A stretch of DNA of 64,000 nucleotides from Flavobacterium sp. (GTDB taxonomy: Bacteria > Bacteroidota > Bacteroidia > Flavobacteriales > Flavobacteriaceae): contig NZ_JBKBOL010000007.1 of assembly GCF_046293665.1 (NCBI RefSeq), positions 83,950 to 147,949 on the forward strand. The letters are read 5' to 3'. Shown here piece after piece: positions 302-58,790 of the stretch (positions are counted from its first letter, which is position 1; every line of letters starts with the position of its first letter). The position numbers were made by a program, and so were the translations under genes. Below the pieces are notes generated by a model, which saw nothing but the letters and a program-made list of their open reading frames with translations, made no database searches and was not told the DNA's origin.

Positions 302-310
302 TTTTTTAAC

Positions 311-331
311 CTGAAACTTGAAACCTGAAAC
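311..331 (+). repeat. Heptamer array ctgaaac/ttgaaac/ctgaaac in the SDR|SprT spacer
   Basis: Three direct 7-mers end 3 nt before the TTG start at 335. Confidence 0.8.
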
Positions 332-2585: not shown

Positions 2586-5500
2586 ATGAACGGTTTTAAA
2601 TTGAAGTTTACTTTTGTCTTTTTGCTTATTACACAGTTGACGTTTGGTCAATTATCCAATTTTACTCTAACAGTCACCAGAACCAATGAAACTTGTACAG
2701 CCAATGGAACGTTGACATTCAATGTTTCAGGAACGACAACAGGATCAACTATTTTGTATTCCATATATCGTTTGCCTAATGTTTCCACTCCGGTATCGAT
2801 TCAATCAACAAATAATTTGGCCGGGCTAATTGCCGGAACTTATAGGGTTATTGCCACTCAGTCTTTAGGCGGTGATAACGGAACGCAACAACAAGATATT
2901 GTTATAGAAGATTTGGTTGTTGACTTAACTTATCAAGTAAGTAGTGTTAGGGAAACTTGTGGAAATGATGGAACAATAAGCGTGAATGTTTTATCGGGTA
3001 CCGTCGCAACCAACGGATTGATTTACGAATTGTTTTCCGGGCCAATGATCAGACCGTTGCAAACCTCCAATGTCTTCAATAATTTAACAGCCGGTGAATA
3101 TCTGATTAGGGTTTTTGACAATTGCGGAGAAGGTGTTGTACAAACGTATAATTTGCAAAGTGCTGATACCGATTTAGTATTTGATTTATTTCCACCTAAT
3201 TTAGCCAGCTGCACAACGGTTAGAATAGGCGCCGGTTTTGAATCTGTTTTGCCTTATCCTCAAGGGGTTGTGAAATTTCCTTTGCAAATAGTGACTACGC
3301 TTATTCCGCCTTCAGGACCAGCCATAACATATACGCAGACGATTTCAAATGGTATCGAGTTTTCGCAAATAGTTCCTTTGTTTGCCAATCAAAATTACAG
3401 CTATACTTTCACAATAACCGATGGTTGCGGCACAGTTTACACGTTAAATGGCCAAATAGATGATTTATCAGTCGAAGCCAGTTACCAAGTTTTACCTGAA
3501 GATTGTACGCACCAACAAGTTACTTTCTTTAGGGTAACAGATGTGATTTTAGTTTCAGCACCATCGGGTTTTTCGACAACATTGCCACAGAGTTATACTG
3601 CTTCTATTGTCAACAATTCCGTTACAATTGGGGGGTTAATTGCCGGGACTTATGTTTTTAATACCATAGATACTTGTGGGAATCCACAAGAATTTACTAT
3701 CGAGGTTATAATATCTGAAGTAGCGCCACCATTTACTTTTTTATACAATGTAAATTGTCTTACAGGCTCAGTAATCATCAGCGGAATATTAGAATTGGTG
3801 ATGATTTCCGCACCACCAACTTATAACGTTCCTTTACCACATGACTATACAAGCTTGATAAATGATGCCAATTATGCCACATTTGAAAATATCCCGGTTG
3901 GAACTTATGTTTTTGAGGTGTTGGATTTGTGTAACCAACCACAGCCAGTAGTAGTAGTTATTGCGCCGGTTTCTGTAAATCCAATTCTAACTGTTGCTGA
4001 AGGATGTCAAGATGGTTTTGGTACGATTCGATTGACAGGACAATTTACTTCAATTTCAATGACTGCTGCTCCCACATCCTATGGTGTAAATTTGCCGTTA
4101 AATTTGATGGGAAATCTAATTTCCAATGGAACTACACTTGTTTTAGACATGTTGCCTGCCGGAAATTATGTCATTCAGTCGATGAATCTTTGCAATGTTC
4201 CATACACTACCAATATCACGATTTTGGGTCATCAGGATATTACTAATGTTACGGTTACACCAAATTGCGGCTCATTTAATCTTAATTTAAATAACACAAC
4301 AAATACTGATATAACAACCTCTTATTGGTTGCAAAAGTTAAACACTGCGACTAATGATTGGGGTCATCCTCTGACCAATGTAGTTTATGACAATGGGACG
4401 TACCCAAATAACATTAATTCTGTTTTATTAACGAATAATAGCATCAATTATAATTTAGCTTACCAAGGTCATTTTAGAATTTTAAAAGTATTCGAAAGTT
4501 TTGAGTTGAATAATCCGGATCCTGTGAATTGTTTTAAAACGATTTATGAATTTGATTTCAACGGATTACCGCGAATTAATGATGTTTATGCTGTTTCTTG
4601 TGGTGGCACTTTTGAAGTTATTGTAATGGCAGAAGGTTTTGCCCCATTGCAGTATAGGATAACTACCAGAAATGGTGCGTCATTTGTAGTTGAGAACGGC
4701 AACTCCAATATTTTTACAGGTTTACAACCTGCTACTTATAACTTTCAAGTGGAAGATGCGTGCGGGAATTTTTTAAATAGCGCTTTTGAGATTTTGAGTC
4801 CAAATCCACTAACCATTTCCGCTAATGAAATCAATTGTGACGGAGAGAATCTTACATTGTCGGCACCTAATTTTTCCTTTTTTCAGTACGAATGGTGGAA
4901 AGACAACAATACTACAAATATTCTCAGTACTACAAGTTCATTAAGTTTTGCGCCTTTTAATTCAGCTGTCAATAACGGAACTTATCATGTTAGAATAACT
5001 TATGCCAATAATCAGAATTCGTGTTTAAATCAAGTGCTAAGTTATACGGTGACGGTTACCAATGTTCCTCCGGATGCAGGAATCGGTGGTTCGTTTACCT
5101 ATTGTGGTCGTCAAGGCAGTATCGATTTGTTTACTCTTTTACAAGGCACATTTGATACCGATGGCATTTGGGATGAAATGACTTCAAGCGGTGCACTTAC
5201 TAACAATATTTGGGATTCGAGCAATGTCGCTTTTGGTAGTTACGAATTCAGATATCATGTAGATGGTAGTTGTAATTTCTTTGAAGAAGCTTTTATCAAT
5301 ATTACTATAAATGAAATCCCAACAATTCCGACAGCTAGTGCAGCTAGTGTCATTTGCGAAGGCGGAAATCTTCAACTATATGCAACCAATGTTCCAAATG
5401 CCAATTACCAATGGACCGGACCAAACGGATTTACTTCAACAGTACAAAATCCTATTTTCAATACTATTTCTCCAAGTATCAATGGAACCTATACGGTTAC

Positions 5501-8561: not shown

Positions 8562-9083
8562 CTATTTTCGCTCTGCGTAAACCATATAATATCTCGGCGT
8601 GAAATACCTCAATAACGGTCGGAAACCTAATTTTTTTACAGGATGCGTAAACTTCACTCGGTCTACAATTTTCCAGCCGGTTTTTTCTAATAACCAATCG
8701 AGTTGCCAATCTTCAAATTCGTGGTAATGTCTGTCCCACATATCGGTTTTGCTTCGGTAAGCAGGAGAAAACCACAAACGCAGCGGAATAGAGATTAAAA
8801 TTTTATCGGCTTTTACGTTTTCTAAAACGGTATACGGATTGAGCAAATGTTCGAAAATTTCAAACGCGGTAAACACTTGGTAGTTTTCGCTTTGCAAAGC
8901 TTTTTGGTCATTGTCTACGTCTTCACCTTTGGTATTGATAACAGTATAACCATTGTCTTCCATGATTTTGGAAAATGGGTTGGGTACGCCTAAATCCAAA
9001 ATAGTTTCAGAAGTAGCAATGTGTTTTTTTAAAAACTGAAGGGTAATGTTAAAGCGTTTACTCGGATAGGTCTTCTCGTACAT
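8562..9083 (-). CDS. Small putative SAM-dependent methyltransferase
   Basis: 173 aa with a weak motif I-like 'ILDLGVPNP' and a Rossmann-like layout. The assignment is tentative. Confidence 0.45.
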   Translation of the reverse strand: MYEKTYPSKRFNITLQFLKKHIATSETILDLGVPNPFSKIMEDNGYTVINTKGEDVDNDQKALQSENYQVFTAFEIFEHLLNPYTVLENVKADKILISIPLRLWFSPAYRSKTDMWDRHYHEFEDWQLDWLLEKTGWKIVDRVKFTHPVKKLGFRPLLRYFTPRYYMVYAERK

Positions 9084-9090
9084 GTAAAAT

Positions 9091-9169
9091 GGTTTCAGGT
9101 TTCAAGTTGAAAAAAATTGTCTGTAAAATTAGTAATATAACCTGAAACTTTGAACTTTAAACTAGAAAC
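9091..9169. repeat. Inverted GAAAC-word repeats (gtttcag gtttcaag ... cctgaaac tttgaac tttaaac tagaaac)
   Basis: Lies in the spacer between the KAS III stop (9185) and the methyltransferase start (9083). 9092-9099 is the exact reverse complement of 9141-9148. Confidence 0.7.
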
Positions 9170-9184
9170 AAAAACTTTTTATGT

Positions 9185-21310: not shown

Positions 21311-21340
21311 AAAAAAAAACCGAAGCCTAAACTCCGGTTT
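21311..21340 (-). terminator. Intrinsic terminator of the M3 peptidase gene
   Basis: On the minus strand, ACCGGAG-uuuagg-CUUCGGU (7 bp including one G-U) is followed by U9. Confidence 0.7.
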
Positions 21341-21346
21341 CTAAAA

Positions 21347-21377
21347 ATCTAATGATCTAACAATCTAAGCAGTCTAA
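21347..21377. repeat. (a/g)tctaa x4 at 8-9-nt period
   Basis: atctaatg atctaaca atctaagca gtctaa. The last unit overlaps the stop codon of the peptidase gene. Confidence 0.7.
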
Positions 21378-23398: not shown

Positions 23399-23406
23399 TT
23401 TTTTGT

Positions 23407-23490
23407 TTCACAGAGTTTCACAGAGCATCTCAGAGATTCACAGAGTAATTCTTTGTGTAGCTCTGTTTTTTCTCTGTGTATCTCTGTGTA
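23407..23490. repeat. Composite palindrome: 4x (CACAGAG/CTCAGAG) then 4x (CTCTGTG-like), each at a 10-11-bp period
   Basis: Left units start at 23409, 23419, 23429 and 23439. Right units start at 23451, 23461, 23472 and 23482. The element lies between the dcp start and the purE stop. Confidence 0.85.
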
Positions 23491-23982: not shown

Positions 23983-23992
23983 TTTATTTTTG

Positions 23993-24020
23993 TTTCAAGT
24001 TTCAAGTTTCAAGTTTCAAG
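23993..24020. repeat. (tttcaag)x4 perfect heptamer array in the purK|purE spacer
   Basis: On the coding (minus) strand this reads (cttgaaa)x4 and ends 10 nt before the purE ATG. Confidence 0.9.
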
Positions 24021-24033
24021 TTGTTTTTAGTGT

Positions 24034-25234: not shown

Positions 25235-25768
25235 CTATCGCAATCGTTTTAAAAGGTCTTTCACTGCGGAGCGATATCCGGGTGTTTGGTTTTCGAATTC
25301 TCGGGATAAAATGAGTTTCAATTCTTCGTTTATCCAGGAATATTTTTTACCCAAATAGTATAAAGCTCTCATGCTGTAAGCAGCATTAGCAGCTTTGTCG
25401 GTTTGAATCAGCCAGTCTAAACAAGCTTCGATAATCTTTTCTTCTTGGGTTTCGGTTAAGGTTATTTTTTTACTTTGCGCCAAAAACAAACAAATTTTCG
25501 ACAAAGAACGGATGGCAGAATCAGAAGTATAGCACTTTAAATTTTGGCAAAAATCTTCCAGATGAGGTTGGATTAGTTCAAGCTTTTCTTCAAAAACCAA
25601 TTCTAAAATCCAACAAGCTTTGTGGTGGTTTTTATCCTTAGTGTTAAAGCTGATTTCGAGTAAATCTTTTAAATATTCAGGGTTTTGAAAGACAAAATTC
25701 TTATTATCGTCTCTGCTTTTTCGATGAGCTGTACTGTTGGCGATGGTTTTATAGTAATCGGGATTCAT
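25235..25768 (-). CDS. Hypothetical all-helical (HEAT/armadillo-like) protein
   Basis: About 177 aa from the internal ATG at 25768. The longer ORF-track N-terminus is encoded by the heptamer repeat and the hpt promoter, so it is unlikely to be real. Confidence 0.55.
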   Translation of the reverse strand: MNPDYYKTIANSTAHRKSRDDNKNFVFQNPEYLKDLLEISFNTKDKNHHKACWILELVFEEKLELIQPHLEDFCQNLKCYTSDSAIRSLSKICLFLAQSKKITLTETQEEKIIEACLDWLIQTDKAANAAYSMRALYYLGKKYSWINEELKLILSREFENQTPGYRSAVKDLLKRLR

Positions 25769-25803
25769 TTCGTAAATATACCAATTTTGCAAAAAAGTTA
25801 AAA

Positions 25804-25831
25804 TACTTGCTACTTGATACTTAATACTTGC
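25804..25831. repeat. (tacttgN)x4 heptamer array abutting the hpt -7 box
   Basis: tacttgc tacttga tacttaa tacttgc. It ends 1 nt before TAAATTTG. Confidence 0.85.
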
Positions 25832-25832
25832 G

Positions 25833-25840
25833 TAAATTTG
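25833..25840 (+). promoter_or_regulatory. Candidate -7 box TAAATTTG for hpt and downstream genes
   Basis: Exact TAnnTTTG, 25 nt upstream of the hpt ATG. Confidence 0.5.
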
Positions 25841-25865
25841 CACCTTATTTAAAATTCAATCCAAA

Positions 25866-26396
25866 ATGATACACCTACACGATAAAACTTTCGAGCCGTT
25901 TATTTCTTCAGAAGAAATTGATTTTGCGATTGCAAATATGGCCAAGCAAATGGACGACGATTTTTTTGACGATGTTCCGGTTTTTATAGGTGTTTTGAAT
26001 GGTGCTTTCATGGTTTTGAGTGACTTGATGAAGAAGTATCGCGGGATGTGTGAAGTGAGTTTTGTGAAAATGGCTTCGTATGAAGGCACGCAAACCACGA
26101 ATGATGTAAAACAATTAATCGGTTTGAATCAAGATTTAGAAGGTAGAACGATGGTAATCGTAGAAGATATCGTTGACACAGGAAACACTATCGAAGAATT
26201 AAAAGTCATCTTCAAAGAAAAAAAAGTGAAGCATTTAAAAATAGCGACCTTATTCTTCAAGCCGGAGGCTTATAAAAAAGACATCAAAATTGATTACGTT
26301 GGGATCAGAATTCCAAACAAATTCATCGTTGGTTACGGTTTAGATTACGATGGTTTAGGGAGAAATTTGCCCGACGTTTACCAATTGGCACAATAA
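25866..26396 (+). CDS. hpt: Hypoxanthine phosphoribosyltransferase
   Basis: 176 aa with the PRPP-binding motif 'VIVEDIVDTGNT'. Confidence 0.9.
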   Translation: MIHLHDKTFEPFISSEEIDFAIANMAKQMDDDFFDDVPVFIGVLNGAFMVLSDLMKKYRGMCEVSFVKMASYEGTQTTNDVKQLIGLNQDLEGRTMVIVEDIVDTGNTIEELKVIFKEKKVKHLKIATLFFKPEAYKKDIKIDYVGIRIPNKFIVGYGLDYDGLGRNLPDVYQLAQ

Positions 26397-26455
26397 AAAG
26401 TTGTCAGTTATCTGTTATCGGTTAAAGAATAATCGTAACAAGCTGATATTTAATT

Positions 26456-26483
26456 CATAACTTATAATTCATAACTCATAACT
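26456..26483 (+). repeat. (cataact/tataatt)x4 heptamer array
   Basis: cataact tataatt cataact cataact. It ends 6 nt before the adk ATG. Confidence 0.85.
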
Positions 26484-26489
26484 ACTAAA

Positions 26490-27062
26490 ATGATTAACAT
26501 CGTTCTTTTCGGAAAACCAGGTGCAGGAAAAGGCACACAAGCTGAATTTTTAAAAGGAAAATACAATTTGACTCATCTTTCTACAGGAGATATTTTCAGA
26601 TTTAATATTAAAAATAATACTGGATTAGGCCAATTAGCCAAGACTTTCATGGATAAAGGTGATTTGGTTCCCGATGAAGTAACGATTCAAATGTTGCAAA
26701 GTGAAGTGGATAAAAACCCAACATGTGCAGGATTTTTATTTGACGGTTTCCCGAGAACCATTGCGCAAGCAGAAGCTTTGGACAAATTCTTAGCATCAAA
26801 AGGACAAAACATCACCGCTACGGTAGCTTTGGAAGCTGATGATGAAATTTTAGTGCAGCGCTTGTTGGAAAGAGGAAAAACTTCGGGCAGGCCAGATGAT
26901 CAAGATGAGGAAAAAATCCGTAACCGTTACCAAGAATACAACGAAAAAACCGCACCTTTGATGGATTATTACGATGCGCAAGGTAAGTTTCACGCCGTAA
27001 ACGGAATTGGTTCAATCGAAGAAGTAACAGAGCGTTTAAGCAAAGTAATAGACAATTTATAA
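26490..27062 (+). CDS. adk: Adenylate kinase
   Basis: 190 aa with the P-loop 'GKPGAGKGTQ' and 'LSTGDIFR'. Confidence 0.95.
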   Translation: MINIVLFGKPGAGKGTQAEFLKGKYNLTHLSTGDIFRFNIKNNTGLGQLAKTFMDKGDLVPDEVTIQMLQSEVDKNPTCAGFLFDGFPRTIAQAEALDKFLASKGQNITATVALEADDEILVQRLLERGKTSGRPDDQDEEKIRNRYQEYNEKTAPLMDYYDAQGKFHAVNGIGSIEEVTERLSKVIDNL

Positions 27063-27092
27063 TTGAAATTTTTGGTTAGAAGGTTATATACT

Positions 27093-27120
27093 CATAACTT
27101 ATAACTTATAACTTATAACT
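27093..27120 (+). repeat. (yataact)x4 heptamer array
   Basis: cataact tataact tataact tataact. It ends 4 nt before the ATG at 27125. Confidence 0.9.
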
Positions 27121-27124
27121 CAAA

Positions 27125-28399
27125 ATGGAGATACTCATTATTCTTTTTTTAATCCTGTTAAACGGTGTTTTTTCGATGTCGGAAATAGCTCTGATATCGG
27201 CACGCAAAAACCGGTTAGAAACGGCGGCGAAGAAAGGAAATACGAATGCTAAAGTCGCTTTAGACTTAGCCAATTCTCCCAATAAATTTTTATCAACCGT
27301 ACAAATCGGAATTACTTTAATCGGAATTTTGACCGGTATTTATTCGGGCGATAAAATCACCTCAGATGTTCAACTATTTGTTGAGAGTTTTGAATTTTTA
27401 AAACCATTTGGTCATAGTGTTGCGGTGGGAATTGTGGTGGTTATTTTGACCTTTTTCTCTTTGGTTTTAGGCGAATTATTGCCCAAAAGAATAGGGTTGA
27501 ATTATCCCGAAGCCATTGCCAAAGCAGTAGCGGTTCCAATGAAAATGGTATCTATAGTTACTATGCCGTTCATTTGGTTACTGACGGTTTCAACGGATTT
27601 TATTTTAGATGTTTTAAAAATTAAACCAACTGCCGACGGGAAAGTAACCGAAGAAGAAATCAAAGCCATTATCAAAGAAGGAACTGAAGGTGGCGAAGTA
27701 CAAGAGATTGAACAAGATATAGTGGAACGTGTTTTCCACATTGGAGATAGAAAAGTAAACTCTTTAATGACACATCGAAAATCGATTGTATATCTTTCTT
27801 ATGACGATACAATCGAAGAATTAAAGGCTAAAGTGTTAGACGAATTGCACTCGGTTTATCCGGTTTGTCATGAGAATTTGGATGATGTTGTGGGAGTCGT
27901 TTTGCTGAAAGATTTGTTTGCCAGTTTTGAAAAAGGGCCATTCGATTTAAAAAATATTACTAAAGATCCGGTGTATTTGATTGAGCATACTTCAGCGTAT
28001 AAAGCGTTGGAAAATTTCAAAAAATCAAAAGTGCATTATGCTTTGGTAACCGACGAATATGGTGTTTTCCAAGGGATTATTACGCTGAATGATATTTTAG
28101 AGGCTTTGGTAGGTGATGCCGCCGATTTTTATGAAGATGAATTCAAATTAATTCCCCGAGAAGACGGAACGTGGTTGGTTGATGGACATTATTCGTTACA
28201 CGATTTCTTGACGTATTTCGATATGGATGAATTGATAAATGACTATGATGTAACCACACTTAGCGGTTTAATTATGACCGAATTAGGTAATATTCCCAAA
28301 ACAGGTGAGAAACTCATTTGGAACAAATTTGAATTAGAAGTCATCGATATGGATGGCGTAAAGATTGATAAAGTGCTTGTGAAAGCGATTAAAGAGTGA
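27125..28399 (+). CDS. CNNM/hemolysin-family protein (DUF21 - CBS pair - CorC/HlyC C-terminal domain)
   Basis: 424 aa with an N-terminal 4-TM DUF21-like region ('NGVFSMSEIALISARK'), a CBS-pair region and a C-terminal transporter-associated domain. Confidence 0.85.
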   Translation: MEILIILFLILLNGVFSMSEIALISARKNRLETAAKKGNTNAKVALDLANSPNKFLSTVQIGITLIGILTGIYSGDKITSDVQLFVESFEFLKPFGHSVAVGIVVVILTFFSLVLGELLPKRIGLNYPEAIAKAVAVPMKMVSIVTMPFIWLLTVSTDFILDVLKIKPTADGKVTEEEIKAIIKEGTEGGEVQEIEQDIVERVFHIGDRKVNSLMTHRKSIVYLSYDDTIEELKAKVLDELHSVYPVCHENLDDVVGVVLLKDLFASFEKGPFDLKNITKDPVYLIEHTSAYKALENFKKSKVHYALVTDEYGVFQGIITLNDILEALVGDAADFYEDEFKLIPREDGTWLVDGHYSLHDFLTYFDMDELINDYDVTTLSGLIMTELGNIPKTGEKLIWNKFELEVIDMDGVKIDKVLVKAIKE

Positions 28400-28409
28400 A
28401 ATAAGTTGA

Positions 28410-28487
28410 CAGTCCCAGTCGCAGTTTGCAGAAAGTTGTAAATTAAATAGCGAAACTGAGACTGAATACTGAGACTGAATACTGAAA
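28410..28487 (+). repeat. (cagtcN)x3 followed by (actgag actgaat)x2 + actgaaa
   Basis: The two halves are imperfect reverse complements (cagtc/gactg). The right half ends 2 nt before the obg ATG. Confidence 0.8.
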
Positions 28488-56909: not shown

Positions 56910-56930
56910 TTTTAATTTTAAAATGTGTCA

Positions 56931-57043
56931 ATTTGAAGATTTGAAAATGGTCAGGATTTTCAAGTCGGGAATAGTGCAAATTTAATTATATTAGATTGTT
57001 ATTTTGATAATTTTCAAATTATCTCATCTTCAAATTTTCAAAT
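56931..57043. repeat. Inverted 'TCTTCAAAT' word arrays in the rarA/rhomboid divergent region
   Basis: atttgaag atttgaaa at 56931-56946 faces ttttcaaat ... tcttcaaat tttcaaat at 57011-57043. The same word occurs at 52793-52801. Confidence 0.7.
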
Positions 57044-57114
57044 TTGTATGACAAATTAGCACTACTTTTATTTTGGCTGTGTTTTTGACAACAAGTATGT
57101 TTTAAAATAAAACC

Positions 57115-57879: not shown

Positions 57880-57910
57880 TTTACCGTTTAGCCCCGATAG
57901 TAATGGAAAT

Positions 57911-57939
57911 AAAAAATGTCCCGAATAGGGACATTTTTT
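57911..57939. terminator. Bidirectional intrinsic terminator
   Basis: A6-tgtccc-gaata-gggaca-T6, between convergent rhomboid and rlmB. Confidence 0.8.
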
Positions 57940-57994
57940 ATTGTATTGAATAGCGGGAAAATGGTTAGCTGATTAATCCCAAGCCATTCGCTCC

Positions 57995-58729
57995 TTACTG
58001 TCTTTGTCTTACGGTTTCATACAAAAACGCGCCACAAGCCACAGAAACGTTCAAGGAGCCGATAGTTCCGAACATGGGTAATTTGGCTTTCTCATCTACA
58101 ATTTTCAAGACTGATGGATTGATGCCTCGGTCTTCGCTGCCCATGATGATGGCTACGGGTTGGTTTAAGTCAATGCTATAAATATTGTCTTCTGTTTTTT
58201 CGGTAGCGGCTACGGTTTTGATACCACTGCCTTGTAAGTAAAAAATAGCATCTTTGATGTGGTCCACTTTGCAGATGGGCACATTGAAAACGGCTCCGGC
58301 AGAAGTTTTTACGGTATCGCCATTGACTGGTGCAGAACCTGTTTTTTGGACAATGATTCCGTCAACGCCGGTGCATTCTGCAGTTCTGATGATGGCGCCG
58401 AAGTTACGGGCATCGCTTAGTTGGTCGAGAATTAAAAATAGTGGCGTTTTGCCGCTTTCGACAACACTGTCCACTAAAGTTTCTAACTTCACGAAAGTGA
58501 TTGGAGCAATCGTGGCTACTGCGCCTTGGTGGTTGTTGGGTGTTAATCGGTTTAATTTTTCCACGGGAACGTAGGAGAAATTGATGCTGTGTTTTTTCAT
58601 GGCTTTCATGAGTTCCTGCATCAATTCGCTTTGCGCATCGCTTTGGATAAATACTTTGTCGATTTCTTTTCCTGCGCTGATGGCTTCGATAATGGCTCTG
58701 ATTCCGAAGATTTGGTTTTCTTTTTCCAT
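57995..58729 (-). CDS. rlmB: 23S rRNA (guanosine-2'-O)-methyltransferase RlmB (SpoU/TrmH family)
   Basis: 244 aa from MEKENQIFGIRAI, with the SpoU motifs 'NFGAIIRTAE', 'IIMGSEDRGI' and 'SLNVSVACG'. The ORF-track extension overlaps the upstream gene and terminator. Confidence 0.85.
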   Translation of the reverse strand: MEKENQIFGIRAIIEAISAGKEIDKVFIQSDAQSELMQELMKAMKKHSINFSYVPVEKLNRLTPNNHQGAVATIAPITFVKLETLVDSVVESGKTPLFLILDQLSDARNFGAIIRTAECTGVDGIIVQKTGSAPVNGDTVKTSAGAVFNVPICKVDHIKDAIFYLQGSGIKTVAATEKTEDNIYSIDLNQPVAIIMGSEDRGINPSVLKIVDEKAKLPMFGTIGSLNVSVACGAFLYETVRQRQ

Positions 58730-58733
58730 GGCG

Positions 58734-58741
58734 CAAAGATA
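58734..58741 (-). promoter_or_regulatory. -7 box TATCTTTG only 4 nt upstream of the rlmB ATG
   Basis: The minus strand reads tatctttg-cgcc-ATG. The box directly abuts the upstream terminator. Confidence 0.45.
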
Positions 58742-58773
58742 TAAAAAAACCACCAGCGAAAACTGGTGGTTTT
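58742..58773 (-). terminator. Intrinsic terminator of the SusC/D-lipoprotein operon
   Basis: accaccag-cgaaaa-ctggtggt hairpin, followed on the minus strand by U7. Confidence 0.8.
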
Positions 58774-58790
58774 GAAAGCGTTTTAAAACT

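Follow-up and report, generated by a model that had tools for sequence, protein, structure and literature searches.

Heptamer repeat arrays in Flavobacterium gene spacers and their predicted stop-to-start hairpins

How start codons are found at the internal cistrons of Bacteroidota, where initiation proceeds without Shine-Dalgarno pairing, is a question that bears on a stretch of 64,000 nucleotides (nt) from a metagenome-assembled Flavobacterium genome (contig NZ_JBKBOL010000007.1, positions 83,950 to 147,949), which we call the window and whose sequence is present in a hot-spring metagenome run (X1, share of words 0.97). The window carries the gene string hpt-adk-CNNM-obg, with the Pfam identities Pribosyltran (hpt), ADK (adk), CNNM+CBS+CorC_HlyC (CNNM), and GTP1_OBG (obg). 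An earlier note on this DNA had pointed out four tandem repeat arrays in the string, three of which stop just short of the next ATG. Both direct reading and Tandem Repeats Finder (TRF) place all four arrays where that note had put them, and the distances of 6, 4, and 2 nt to the ATG of adk, CNNM, and obg are likewise correct. The three arrays of the internal spacers are our main subject.

26456..26483, + strand: (CATAACT/TATAATT)x4 leader array, read as cataact/tataatt/cataact/cataact, 6 nt 5' of the adk ATG (26490); 3' arm of a predicted hairpin
27093..27120, + strand: (YATAACT)x4 leader array, 4 nt 5' of the CNNM ATG (27125)
28455..28487, + strand: (ACTGAG ACTGAAT)x2 + ACTGAAA leader array, 2 nt 5' of the obg ATG (28490); 3' arm of a predicted hairpin

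Frequency, position, and conservation of the arrays

For comparison, orthologous spacers were extracted from 80 syntenic loci in species genomes and from 80 more in metagenomes (labels such as L001 denote these loci). The arrays have TRF scores of 42-62, and at a strict threshold shuffled spacers yield about 0-0.04 arrays per 70 spacers, compared with the 3-15 that are observed. Chance is excluded as the origin of these arrays. When non-redundant orthologous spacers are scored for self-match at 12 or more of 14 positions, a period of 7 is found in 32/112 spacers of the genome set and 20/95 of the metagenome set, versus 0.3-0.45 in shuffles. Periods of 3-6 and 9-12 are near chance (0-1 observed), small excesses appear at 8 and 13, and the period of 14 is a harmonic. 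Approximately a quarter of the orthologous spacers surveyed in two operons, across some 160 Flavobacterium genomes or contigs, have an unstructured heptamer leader, which is often closed as a predicted stop-to-start hairpin.

The placement of the arrays is also far from even. Across the window and the 80 loci, the density of period-7 arrays is 0.50 per kb in intergenic DNA and 0.0015 per kb in coding DNA, a difference of about 300-fold. Among 104 arrays, 89 are in co-directional and 15 in divergent spacers, and none was found in 44 convergent spacers. Half of the arrays in non-redundant co-directional spacers (20/40) end no more than 12 nt from the next start, and 12/40 begin no more than 12 nt after the preceding stop, where random placement predicts 8.1 in each case. 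This positional bias persists in spacers of 130-185 nt. The arrays exceed chance, concentrate before starts, and are rare in coding DNA. In these respects they are tandem repeats of a unit within the 5-11-nt range beyond what composition predicts, dominated by heptamers and mainly intergenic, which is how long simple sequence repeats (LSSRs) are recognized.

Arrays near starts have a distinct composition (A.50, C.19, G.07, T.20), and arrays near stops are T-rich, the complement of this. The units near starts are diverse, with 24 types counted, and 23 of these lack ATG, GTG, and TTG. We rejected this avoidance of start codons as independent evidence, since the G-poor composition is estimated to predict about the same. 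No match to the arrays was returned by Rfam 15, whether the cut-off was the gathering threshold or E<=1.

The earlier note saw in the four copies a rule of design, which does not hold up. Arrays with at least four copies span 4.0-7.0 copies by length, chains of cores in orthologues reach 6, and up to 9 copies can be read by eye in L099, such that copy number across species runs from 3 to 9. The five-nucleotide cores ACTGA, ATAAC, and TACTT are constant while one or two positions per unit vary. Indeed, mismatches within arrays cluster at one or two unit positions (p=0.016), although this clustering could also stem from duplication of two-unit blocks, such as 13-14-nt super-repeats.

Arrays are kept in orthologous spacers, with the cores ATAAC and ACTGA. 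As a yardstick of constraint we used the four-fold degenerate sites of the flanking genes, compared between the window and its relatives, for which identity is 0.35-0.72 and the random expectation is 0.26. The adk-CNNM spacer is 97% identical to that of L001 and 79-84% identical to those of L006, L008, L059, and L023, and the four-fold sites for the adk-CNNM relatives are 0.38-0.72 identical. The CNNM-obg spacer is 82% identical to that of L008 and 78% identical to that of L016. At least three ACTGA cores are chained upstream of obg in 18 loci, and at least three ATAAC cores precede CNNM in 9. These chains persist down to a four-fold identity of 0.36-0.38, and near-start arrays are found at 0.36-0.47. 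Because the cores persist where four-fold sites are nearly randomized, we argue that they are under constraint. From these sequence comparisons, we conclude that the arrays are a real, conserved, and genus-wide feature of Flavobacterium gene spacers. Cultured species with such arrays include F. cheonhonense JCM 17064 and F. terrisoli PT-3.

One heptamer also recurs within the window. The earlier note had listed three further sites of the same design, and all three are present.

308..331, + strand: (AACYTGA)x3.4 array, 3 nt before the TTG start (335) of a SprT-like gene; minimum free energy (MFE) of -0.3 kcal/mol
9091..9108, - strand: AACTTGAAACCTGAAACC array, 7 nt before a start codon at 9083
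23992..24022, - strand: (AACTTGA)x4.4 leader array, 10 nt before the purE ATG; no partner, fully unstructured (MFE 0)

Dimers of AACYTGA are found at these three unlinked places (308-328 on the + strand, 9095-9108 and 23995-24022 on the - strand), in each case shortly before a start codon and in the sense direction, and 7 matches are counted versus 0.30 expected. The array at 9091..9108 has a partly complementary array at about 9141-9171, and the fold is not significant (z -0.16). For the purE leader array, an orthologous AACTTGAAACCTTAAACTTGAAAC is found in at least 8 species.

As a separate observation, other contigs of the source metagenome (X1) that cover window positions 26451-26490 and 27090-27122 have the CATAACT array in common and then continue into different sequence. 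In one of them, the CATAACT array runs straight into another ATG (ATGGACTACGGAAAAGAA...). The array thus precedes other genes too in that community.

Inverted partners and the transcription of the spacers

The earlier note had held that RNA made from these arrays cannot fold on itself. For the arrays alone this is right, since those before adk, CNNM, and obg have MFEs of 0, -1.4, and -1.6 kcal/mol and are essentially structure-free. What had been overlooked is that an inverted partner lies upstream in each of the three internal spacers and makes a predicted hairpin there.

26399..26424, + strand: inverted array agttgtc/agttatc/tgttatc/ggtta, starts 3 nt past the hpt stop codon; predicted 5' arm in the hpt-adk spacer
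27070..27088, + strand: 5' arm tttttggttag-aaggttat, 8 nt after the adk stop codon
28410..28431, + strand: (CAGTCN)x3 inverted array downstream of the CNNM stop codon; predicted 5' arm in the CNNM-obg spacer

The first of these is the reverse complement of cataact-type units, and its minus strand reads ATAACNGATAACT. The third had been recognized before as an opposite-sense cagtcN array, and it reads cagtcc/cagtcg/cagttt at 28410-28427. In all three spacers, the leader array forms the 3' arm, and the 5' arm is an inverted array that starts 3-10 nt past the upstream stop. The predicted folds have energies of -15.6 kcal/mol (z -2.73) for hpt-adk, -10.0 kcal/mol (z -1.88) for adk-CNNM, and -23.8 kcal/mol (z -4.03) for CNNM-obg. 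In the adk-CNNM spacer, the last (YATAACT) units and CAAAAU pair with the 5' arm, and in the adk-CNNM clade the base of the stem takes in the AU of AUG. This clade stem has 92% of its cells paired across 11 species.

Such partners are common in the genus. Among 19 non-redundant near-start arrays, 8-10 have a significantly complementary upstream partner, where about 1 is expected from other spacers and from shuffles, and the median folding z is -3.1 for array-bearing spacers versus -1.7 for other spacers (p=0.002). The predicted stems are imperfect and reach up to about 25 bp. They begin a median of 3 nt after the stop, which would place them within reach of the terminating ribosome, and they end a median of 16 nt before the start, with the last array units often single-stranded before the AUG. 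Those of the three internal spacers in the window are not intrinsic terminators, given that the 3' arms run into A-rich sequence and the ATG.

The 5' arm of the CNNM-obg spacer is conserved in L008, L016, L040, L092, L101, and L113. The hpt-adk 3' array by itself is common to at least 6 species (L006, L023, L065, L092, L093, and L099), and its inverted arm is found only in the window. The leader array is therefore older and more conserved, and hairpin arms come and go.

Are these spacers transcribed as part of one messenger? The earlier note had reported no TAnnTTTG box in the three internal spacers, and on the + strand there is none. Nor do these spacers contain a canonical intrinsic terminator or a terminator-like site. 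Among spacers more generally, T-runs occur in 5/31 that bear arrays versus 68/171 others (p=0.014), and -7 boxes occur in 3/31 versus 40/171 (p=0.10), with equal median length. The depletion of T-runs and the smaller share of -7 boxes fit a position inside operons. An internal promoter with leaderless mRNA was considered and rejected because no TAnnTTTG is present between array and ATG, and a scan for Sigma-70 promoters was set aside as uninformative for Bacteroidota.

Stranded RNA-seq data of F. columnare cover the four genes continuously in sense, with large steps between cistrons. The adk-CNNM spacer, which has only a weak array in this species, is read through at about 55x and yields no discrete RNA ends. 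Past a TATATTTG box, coverage climbs still higher, starting at about position 3905, which points to an internal promoter in this spacer. The earlier view of the arrays as probable intercistronic RNA of a single transcript gains support for the three internal arrays, for which we infer transcription from the lack of promoters and terminators together with the adk-CNNM read-through in F. columnare. For hpt it does not hold.

25804..25831, no strand assigned: (TACTTGN)x4 array between divergent promoters, 1 nt before the hpt -7 box TAAATTTG (25833-25840)

The array adjoins the -7 box as had been noted, with a single base between it and TAAATTTG, and hence it is DNA upstream of a promoter element rather than RNA between cistrons. 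In most species with a detected array, the array lies 0-3 nt upstream of the hpt -7 box, and in the L032 clade it is about 20 nt upstream. Nearly all species have a heptamer array over the -33 region, between the hpt -7 box and the promoter region of the divergent gene, and the unit family varies by clade (ATACTTN, CTAACTT, CATAACT/TATAATT, TTAATTG). Judged by its position, the hpt array is a separate case of heptamer repeats at the -33 region of promoter DNA, not a leader RNA, and it possibly has a role at the level of DNA. Beside the start of the divergent gene (25235-25768, no Pfam match), a motif GTAAATATATCAAATTTGCAAAAAAGT at window positions 25770-25800 and in orthologues is very strongly conserved genus-wide. 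It is probably the promoter and leader of that gene.

Possible functions of the arrays

We tentatively favor, without calling it probable, the reading that the arrays before adk, CNNM, obg, purE, and the genes at 335 and 9083 serve as cis-acting leaders of internal cistrons in initiation that does not use Shine-Dalgarno sites, and that they are born by slippage and optionally fitted with a hairpin. We infer that they originate by replication slippage, which favors 7-nt units in many bacteria and would explain both the period and the drift in copy number. They might then be kept wherever a non-folding, A/C-rich, and G-poor segment of 20-35 nt before a start codon is useful. In F. johnsoniae, unstructured and A-rich upstream regions favor initiation, in a study that is silent on repeats (PMC6847099). 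This reading retains part of the suggestion in the earlier note that the arrays are structure-free landing pads, in that they are unstructured alone, close to starts, and conserved. However, that suggestion ignored the hairpin context, and the presumed benefit to initiation is itself conjectural.

About half of the near-start arrays have an inverted copy just past the upstream stop, which would give a long, imperfect hairpin whose base joins the stop and start codons. It is reasonable to speculate that a ribosome terminating upstream melts the 5' arm and thereby opens the entire array to loading of the 30S subunit. Instead of this, or in addition to it, RNase III might cut the hairpin to leave a downstream mRNA with an unstructured leader. 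A plausible role of the predicted hairpin is thus to couple initiation on the downstream gene to translation of the upstream one, or to act as a processing site.

Several observations weigh against assigning the arrays such a function. Arrays are missing from many orthologous spacers. Certain adk-CNNM spacers are just 14-15 nt long, others have a terminator and a promoter as well as a conserved leader ahead of CNNM, and the hpt-adk spacer is wholly different in the closest relative, L001. The median of 16 nt left unpaired before the ATG in many hairpins means that masking would often be partial. Furthermore, tests for selection at the level of RNA give no clear signal: G-U pairs number 86 on the sense strand and 74 on the antisense strand (p=0.38), and the two strands fold equally well. 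RNAalifold and pair counting on two clades find conserved pairing with hardly any compensatory change: covariation in the adk-CNNM stem is weak (26/500 shuffles reach the observed score), and no pair with a double change was seen in the CNNM-obg clade. The leader unit family CATAACT/TATAATT is also present in non-transcribed promoter DNA of other species, which a mutational repertoire fits better than does an RNA-specific function. Finally, no RNA run with the window sequence was found, and metatranscriptomes carry at most 17% of its words.

The main rival grants the arrays no function of their own. They would be near-neutral heptanucleotide microsatellites that slippage creates, that template switching at quasi-palindromes inverts, and that persist where nothing is encoded. 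Heptamers are the most abundant long repeat class in many bacteria, for which slippage has been proposed according to summaries of the original survey (PMC4679880, PMC4692102), and the spread of 3-9 copies between species, the 24 unit types near starts, the many arrayless spacers, and the lack of any G-U excess or strand asymmetry are all as neutral turnover would have them. So are the units shared by leaders and promoter DNA, and the hpt-adk 5' arm, whose presence in the window and absence from L006, L092, and L099 is what inverted duplication predicts. Yet the cores and whole spacers are far more conserved than four-fold sites, even spacers as long as 130-185 nt show the positional bias, and one heptamer precedes a start, in sense, at each of three unlinked loci. 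In addition, F. columnare strains have no indels in these arrays, although those strains are very similar and their arrays weak, and mismatches fall on one or two unit positions (p=0.016). We regard purely neutral turnover with inverted duplication as unlikely, but as an account to be taken seriously. Even if it were correct, the arrays would record a sharp 7-nt slippage signature and advise caution in the prediction of RNA motifs and promoters in these genomes.

Perhaps the arrays are instead multimeric binding sites, with one heptad per domain or subunit of a protein. On RNA, the partner might be bS1, a cold-shock protein, or some other protein that binds single strands and either brings ribosomes in or keeps them out, and on DNA, at the hpt promoter, it might be a regulator or an architectural protein. 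Constancy of the ACTGA, ATAAC, and TACTT cores amid one or two variable positions per unit would suit such a protein, as would the survival of the cores beyond saturated synonymous divergence, the recurrence of units at unlinked loci, and the genus-wide location of the hpt array beside the -7 box in non-transcribed DNA. There are also precedents, since S1, Csp, and CsrA were proposed as binders of TAACTGA repeats (PMC4679880), and a binding partner was proposed for the heptamers of Nostoc. However, the units are too diverse for a single specific binder, the mismatch pattern would also follow from duplication of two-unit blocks, and a single-strand binder needs no complementary arms. We hold this account to be decidedly unlikely, while a binding-site array is possible above all for the hpt promoter array.

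A bolder version would make the arrays the recognition element of a dedicated Flavobacteriia initiation system that replaces Shine-Dalgarno pairing, in which each 7-nt unit is bound by one domain of bS1 or another multi-domain single-strand binder, and the inverted arm ties loading to upstream translation. We consider this highly speculative and improbable. If true, it would constitute a genus-wide modular coupling device for internal cistrons.

It is similarly improbable that the hairpins are all that matters, with the repeats incidental to stabilizers or processing sites (REP-like or RNase III sites) that set the stabilities of the segments of a polycistronic mRNA. The long imperfect stems of up to about 25 bp, whose median distance from the preceding stop codon is 3 nt, their confinement to spacers between co-directional genes, and the strongly unequal RNA coverage of adjacent cistrons in F. 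columnare are consistent with this function, and RNase III processing is documented for the hmw heptamer hairpin (PMC12721329). However, about half of the near-start arrays are partnerless, the hpt-adk spacer conserves a lone 3' array rather than a hairpin, the F. columnare spacer has no discrete RNA ends, and the stems share no palindromic consensus.

Phase variation, in which the gain or loss of units would switch the downstream gene as heptamer repeats upstream of hmw1A do in Haemophilus, can be dismissed as very improbable despite the differences in copy number between species, given that the genes are housekeeping (adk, obg, purE, hpt), that the arrays are short (3-7 copies), that the window and L001 have the same number of units (four) before CNNM, and that neither variant contigs in the source sample, where the related metagenome contigs are of other species with replaced spacers, nor array indels among F. 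columnare strains were found.

Relation to known repeats and other features of the region

The earlier note knew of no described function for such arrays. This is correct as far as function goes, but repeats of this kind had been described before, as heptamer LSSRs, as TAACTGA repeats, and as the hmw simple sequence repeat (SSR) hairpin. The Flavobacterium arrays are a variant of these known but little-understood bacterial heptamer repeats, and what is new is the stop-to-start hairpin pairing. They constitute a concrete, mutable element that links the unexplained heptamer repeats of Beggiatoaceae and cyanobacteria to a tractable genus.

Among the closest of these are the TAACTGA direct repeats found a few nucleotides upstream of starts in marine Beggiatoaceae, cyanobacteria, and five Bacteroidetes, for which a translational role was proposed (MacGregor 2015, PMC4679880). 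Gramella, Aequorivita, and Elizabethkingia were noted to carry repeats of other heptamers. Like the arrays described here, TAACTGA repeats consist of 2-6 tandem forward heptamers a few nucleotides before the starts of genes that lack a Shine-Dalgarno site and are often housekeeping, and the gaps of 2, 4, and 6 nt in the window match this arrangement. The unit differs, in that the window has no exact TAACTGA dimer and repeats many other units, the nearest of which have 1-2 mismatches (TAACTYA, ATACTGA). Furthermore, one unit is dominant there (169 sets), whereas Flavobacterium uses many unit families. A single inverted set is known there, whereas about half of the Flavobacterium arrays have an inverted array as partner. 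The TAACTGA repeats were suggested to have spread horizontally, whereas orthologous Flavobacterium arrays are inherited and conserved.

A precedent for the hairpin is found in Haemophilus influenzae, where the hmw (ATCTTTC)n repeat is transcribed as one arm of a long hairpin in the 5' untranslated region (UTR) that is processed by RNase III (PMC12721329). In hmw1A and hmw2A, as in the structures predicted here (z -1.9 to -4.0), the heptamer array is one hairpin arm just 5' of the coding region, and the hmw structure controls protein output post-transcriptionally. Unlike our arrays, the hmw locus is phase-variable, has at least 11 repeats, and uses a G-rich partner arm rather than an inverted repeat array. 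It also concerns a virulence adhesin rather than housekeeping genes inside an operon, and RNase III cleavage has been shown for it.

Among the long SSRs of bacteria, those with heptamer units are the commonest, and slippage has been proposed as their origin (Mrazek 2007, as summarized in PMC4679880 and PMC4692102). Nostoc heptamers near starts or promoters affect reporter output, and an unidentified binding partner was proposed (bioRxiv 10.1101/2022.06.06.494920). Our arrays resemble these heptanucleotide LSSRs, including the short tandemly repeated repetitive (STRR) sequences of cyanobacteria, the Nostoc heptamers, and the GGGAATC repeats of Xanthomonas, in that heptamers are over-represented, mostly intergenic, and often near starts or promoters, with length and sequence that differ between related species. 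Many members of that group, in contrast, are long (up to tens of copies), and those of Xanthomonas and Nostoc are G-rich or quadruplex-forming. No stop-to-start hairpin has been described for the group, whose analyzed taxa did not include Flavobacterium.

Imperfect hairpins between co-directional genes that start inside the footprint of the terminating ribosome are also a trait of repetitive extragenic palindromes (REPs), of bacterial interspersed mosaic elements (BIMEs), and of the translational-coupling hairpins of E. coli, and they could likewise affect upstream termination, downstream initiation, or mRNA stability. REPs have one genome-wide consensus and are mobilized by RAYT transposases. 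Flavobacterium stems, in contrast, are made of locus-specific tandem units without a common consensus, and the arms differ from locus to locus (agttatc, ggttata, cagtcn, cacagag) instead of following the single dispersed palindrome of REP/BIME (REPIN) elements.

A further pair of arrays in the window has a period of 10 and lies near the purE gene.

23405..23490, - strand: opposed period-10 arrays, TACACAGAGA x4 and CTCTGTGAAN x4, which together fill the spacer between purE and peptidase M3; predicted long hairpin of -31.4 kcal/mol, z -6.71

Arrays with a period of 8 are also present. The array (TTAGATNN)x4.6 at 21340-21377, in minus-strand sense, lies between the peptidase M3 stop codon and a terminator hairpin. 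The position of this TTAGATNN array is thus in a 3' UTR, not upstream of a start. A divergent promoter region at 56925-57045 contains opposed period-8 arrays, TTTGAAGA/TTTGAAAA, and then AATTTTCA x4.6. The second period-8 array there leads into a CAAATTTG box that resembles a -7 box.

Some orthologous spacers hold sequence of other kinds. The CNNM-obg spacer of 21 loci (L003, L006, L007, L015, L036, L044, L045, L055, L067, L069, L070, L080, L081, L096, L104, L125, L130, L132, L137, L144, and L146) carries a conserved insert of about 100 nt that starts with ATGACAGARGATTTGAWATTAARAGGAG and holds a GGACAGCCRGTGGCTGTCAGG-type hairpin. The first bases of this insert repeat the first codons of obg (ATGACAGAAG). 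Candidate explanations for the insert are duplication of the obg start, a leader peptide, and a small mobile element. The copies of L007, L015, and L045 have no match in Rfam. The adk-CNNM spacer has no array in L015, L017-L020, L024, L029-L031, L033, L037, L049, L053-L058, L061, L064, L067, L069, L070, L074, and many of L082-L159. It contains instead, ahead of the CNNM/CorC gene, a terminator, a promoter-like AGATATTTGCA, and a T-run hairpin that is conserved (AAAAGGAGCTATTTCCG...GCTCTTTTTTT). This arrangement resembles a leader of the attenuator or riboswitch type for a gene that would encode an Mg/Co transporter, and Rfam returned no match for L015 and L033.

Short G+C-rich inserts such as CCCGAGCGCAGCGAGCTGACGCAGT and GCTTTGCTCGGGTCGAG interrupt arrays in the CNNM-obg spacers of L088 and L094, in the adk-CNNM spacers of L002, L004, L005, L016, L043, and L084/L097, and in the hpt-adk spacer of L043. 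They may be miniature mobile elements that target arrays. Elsewhere in the window, the Flavo-1 RNA of Rfam (RF01705) matches positions 57886-57964 on the + strand at 50.8 bits, against a gathering score of 42. This match falls in a region (57880-58790) where a simple caller of open reading frames (ORFs) that begin with ATG finds only short ORFs, and a second copy of Flavo-1 is present at L045:5293-5372.

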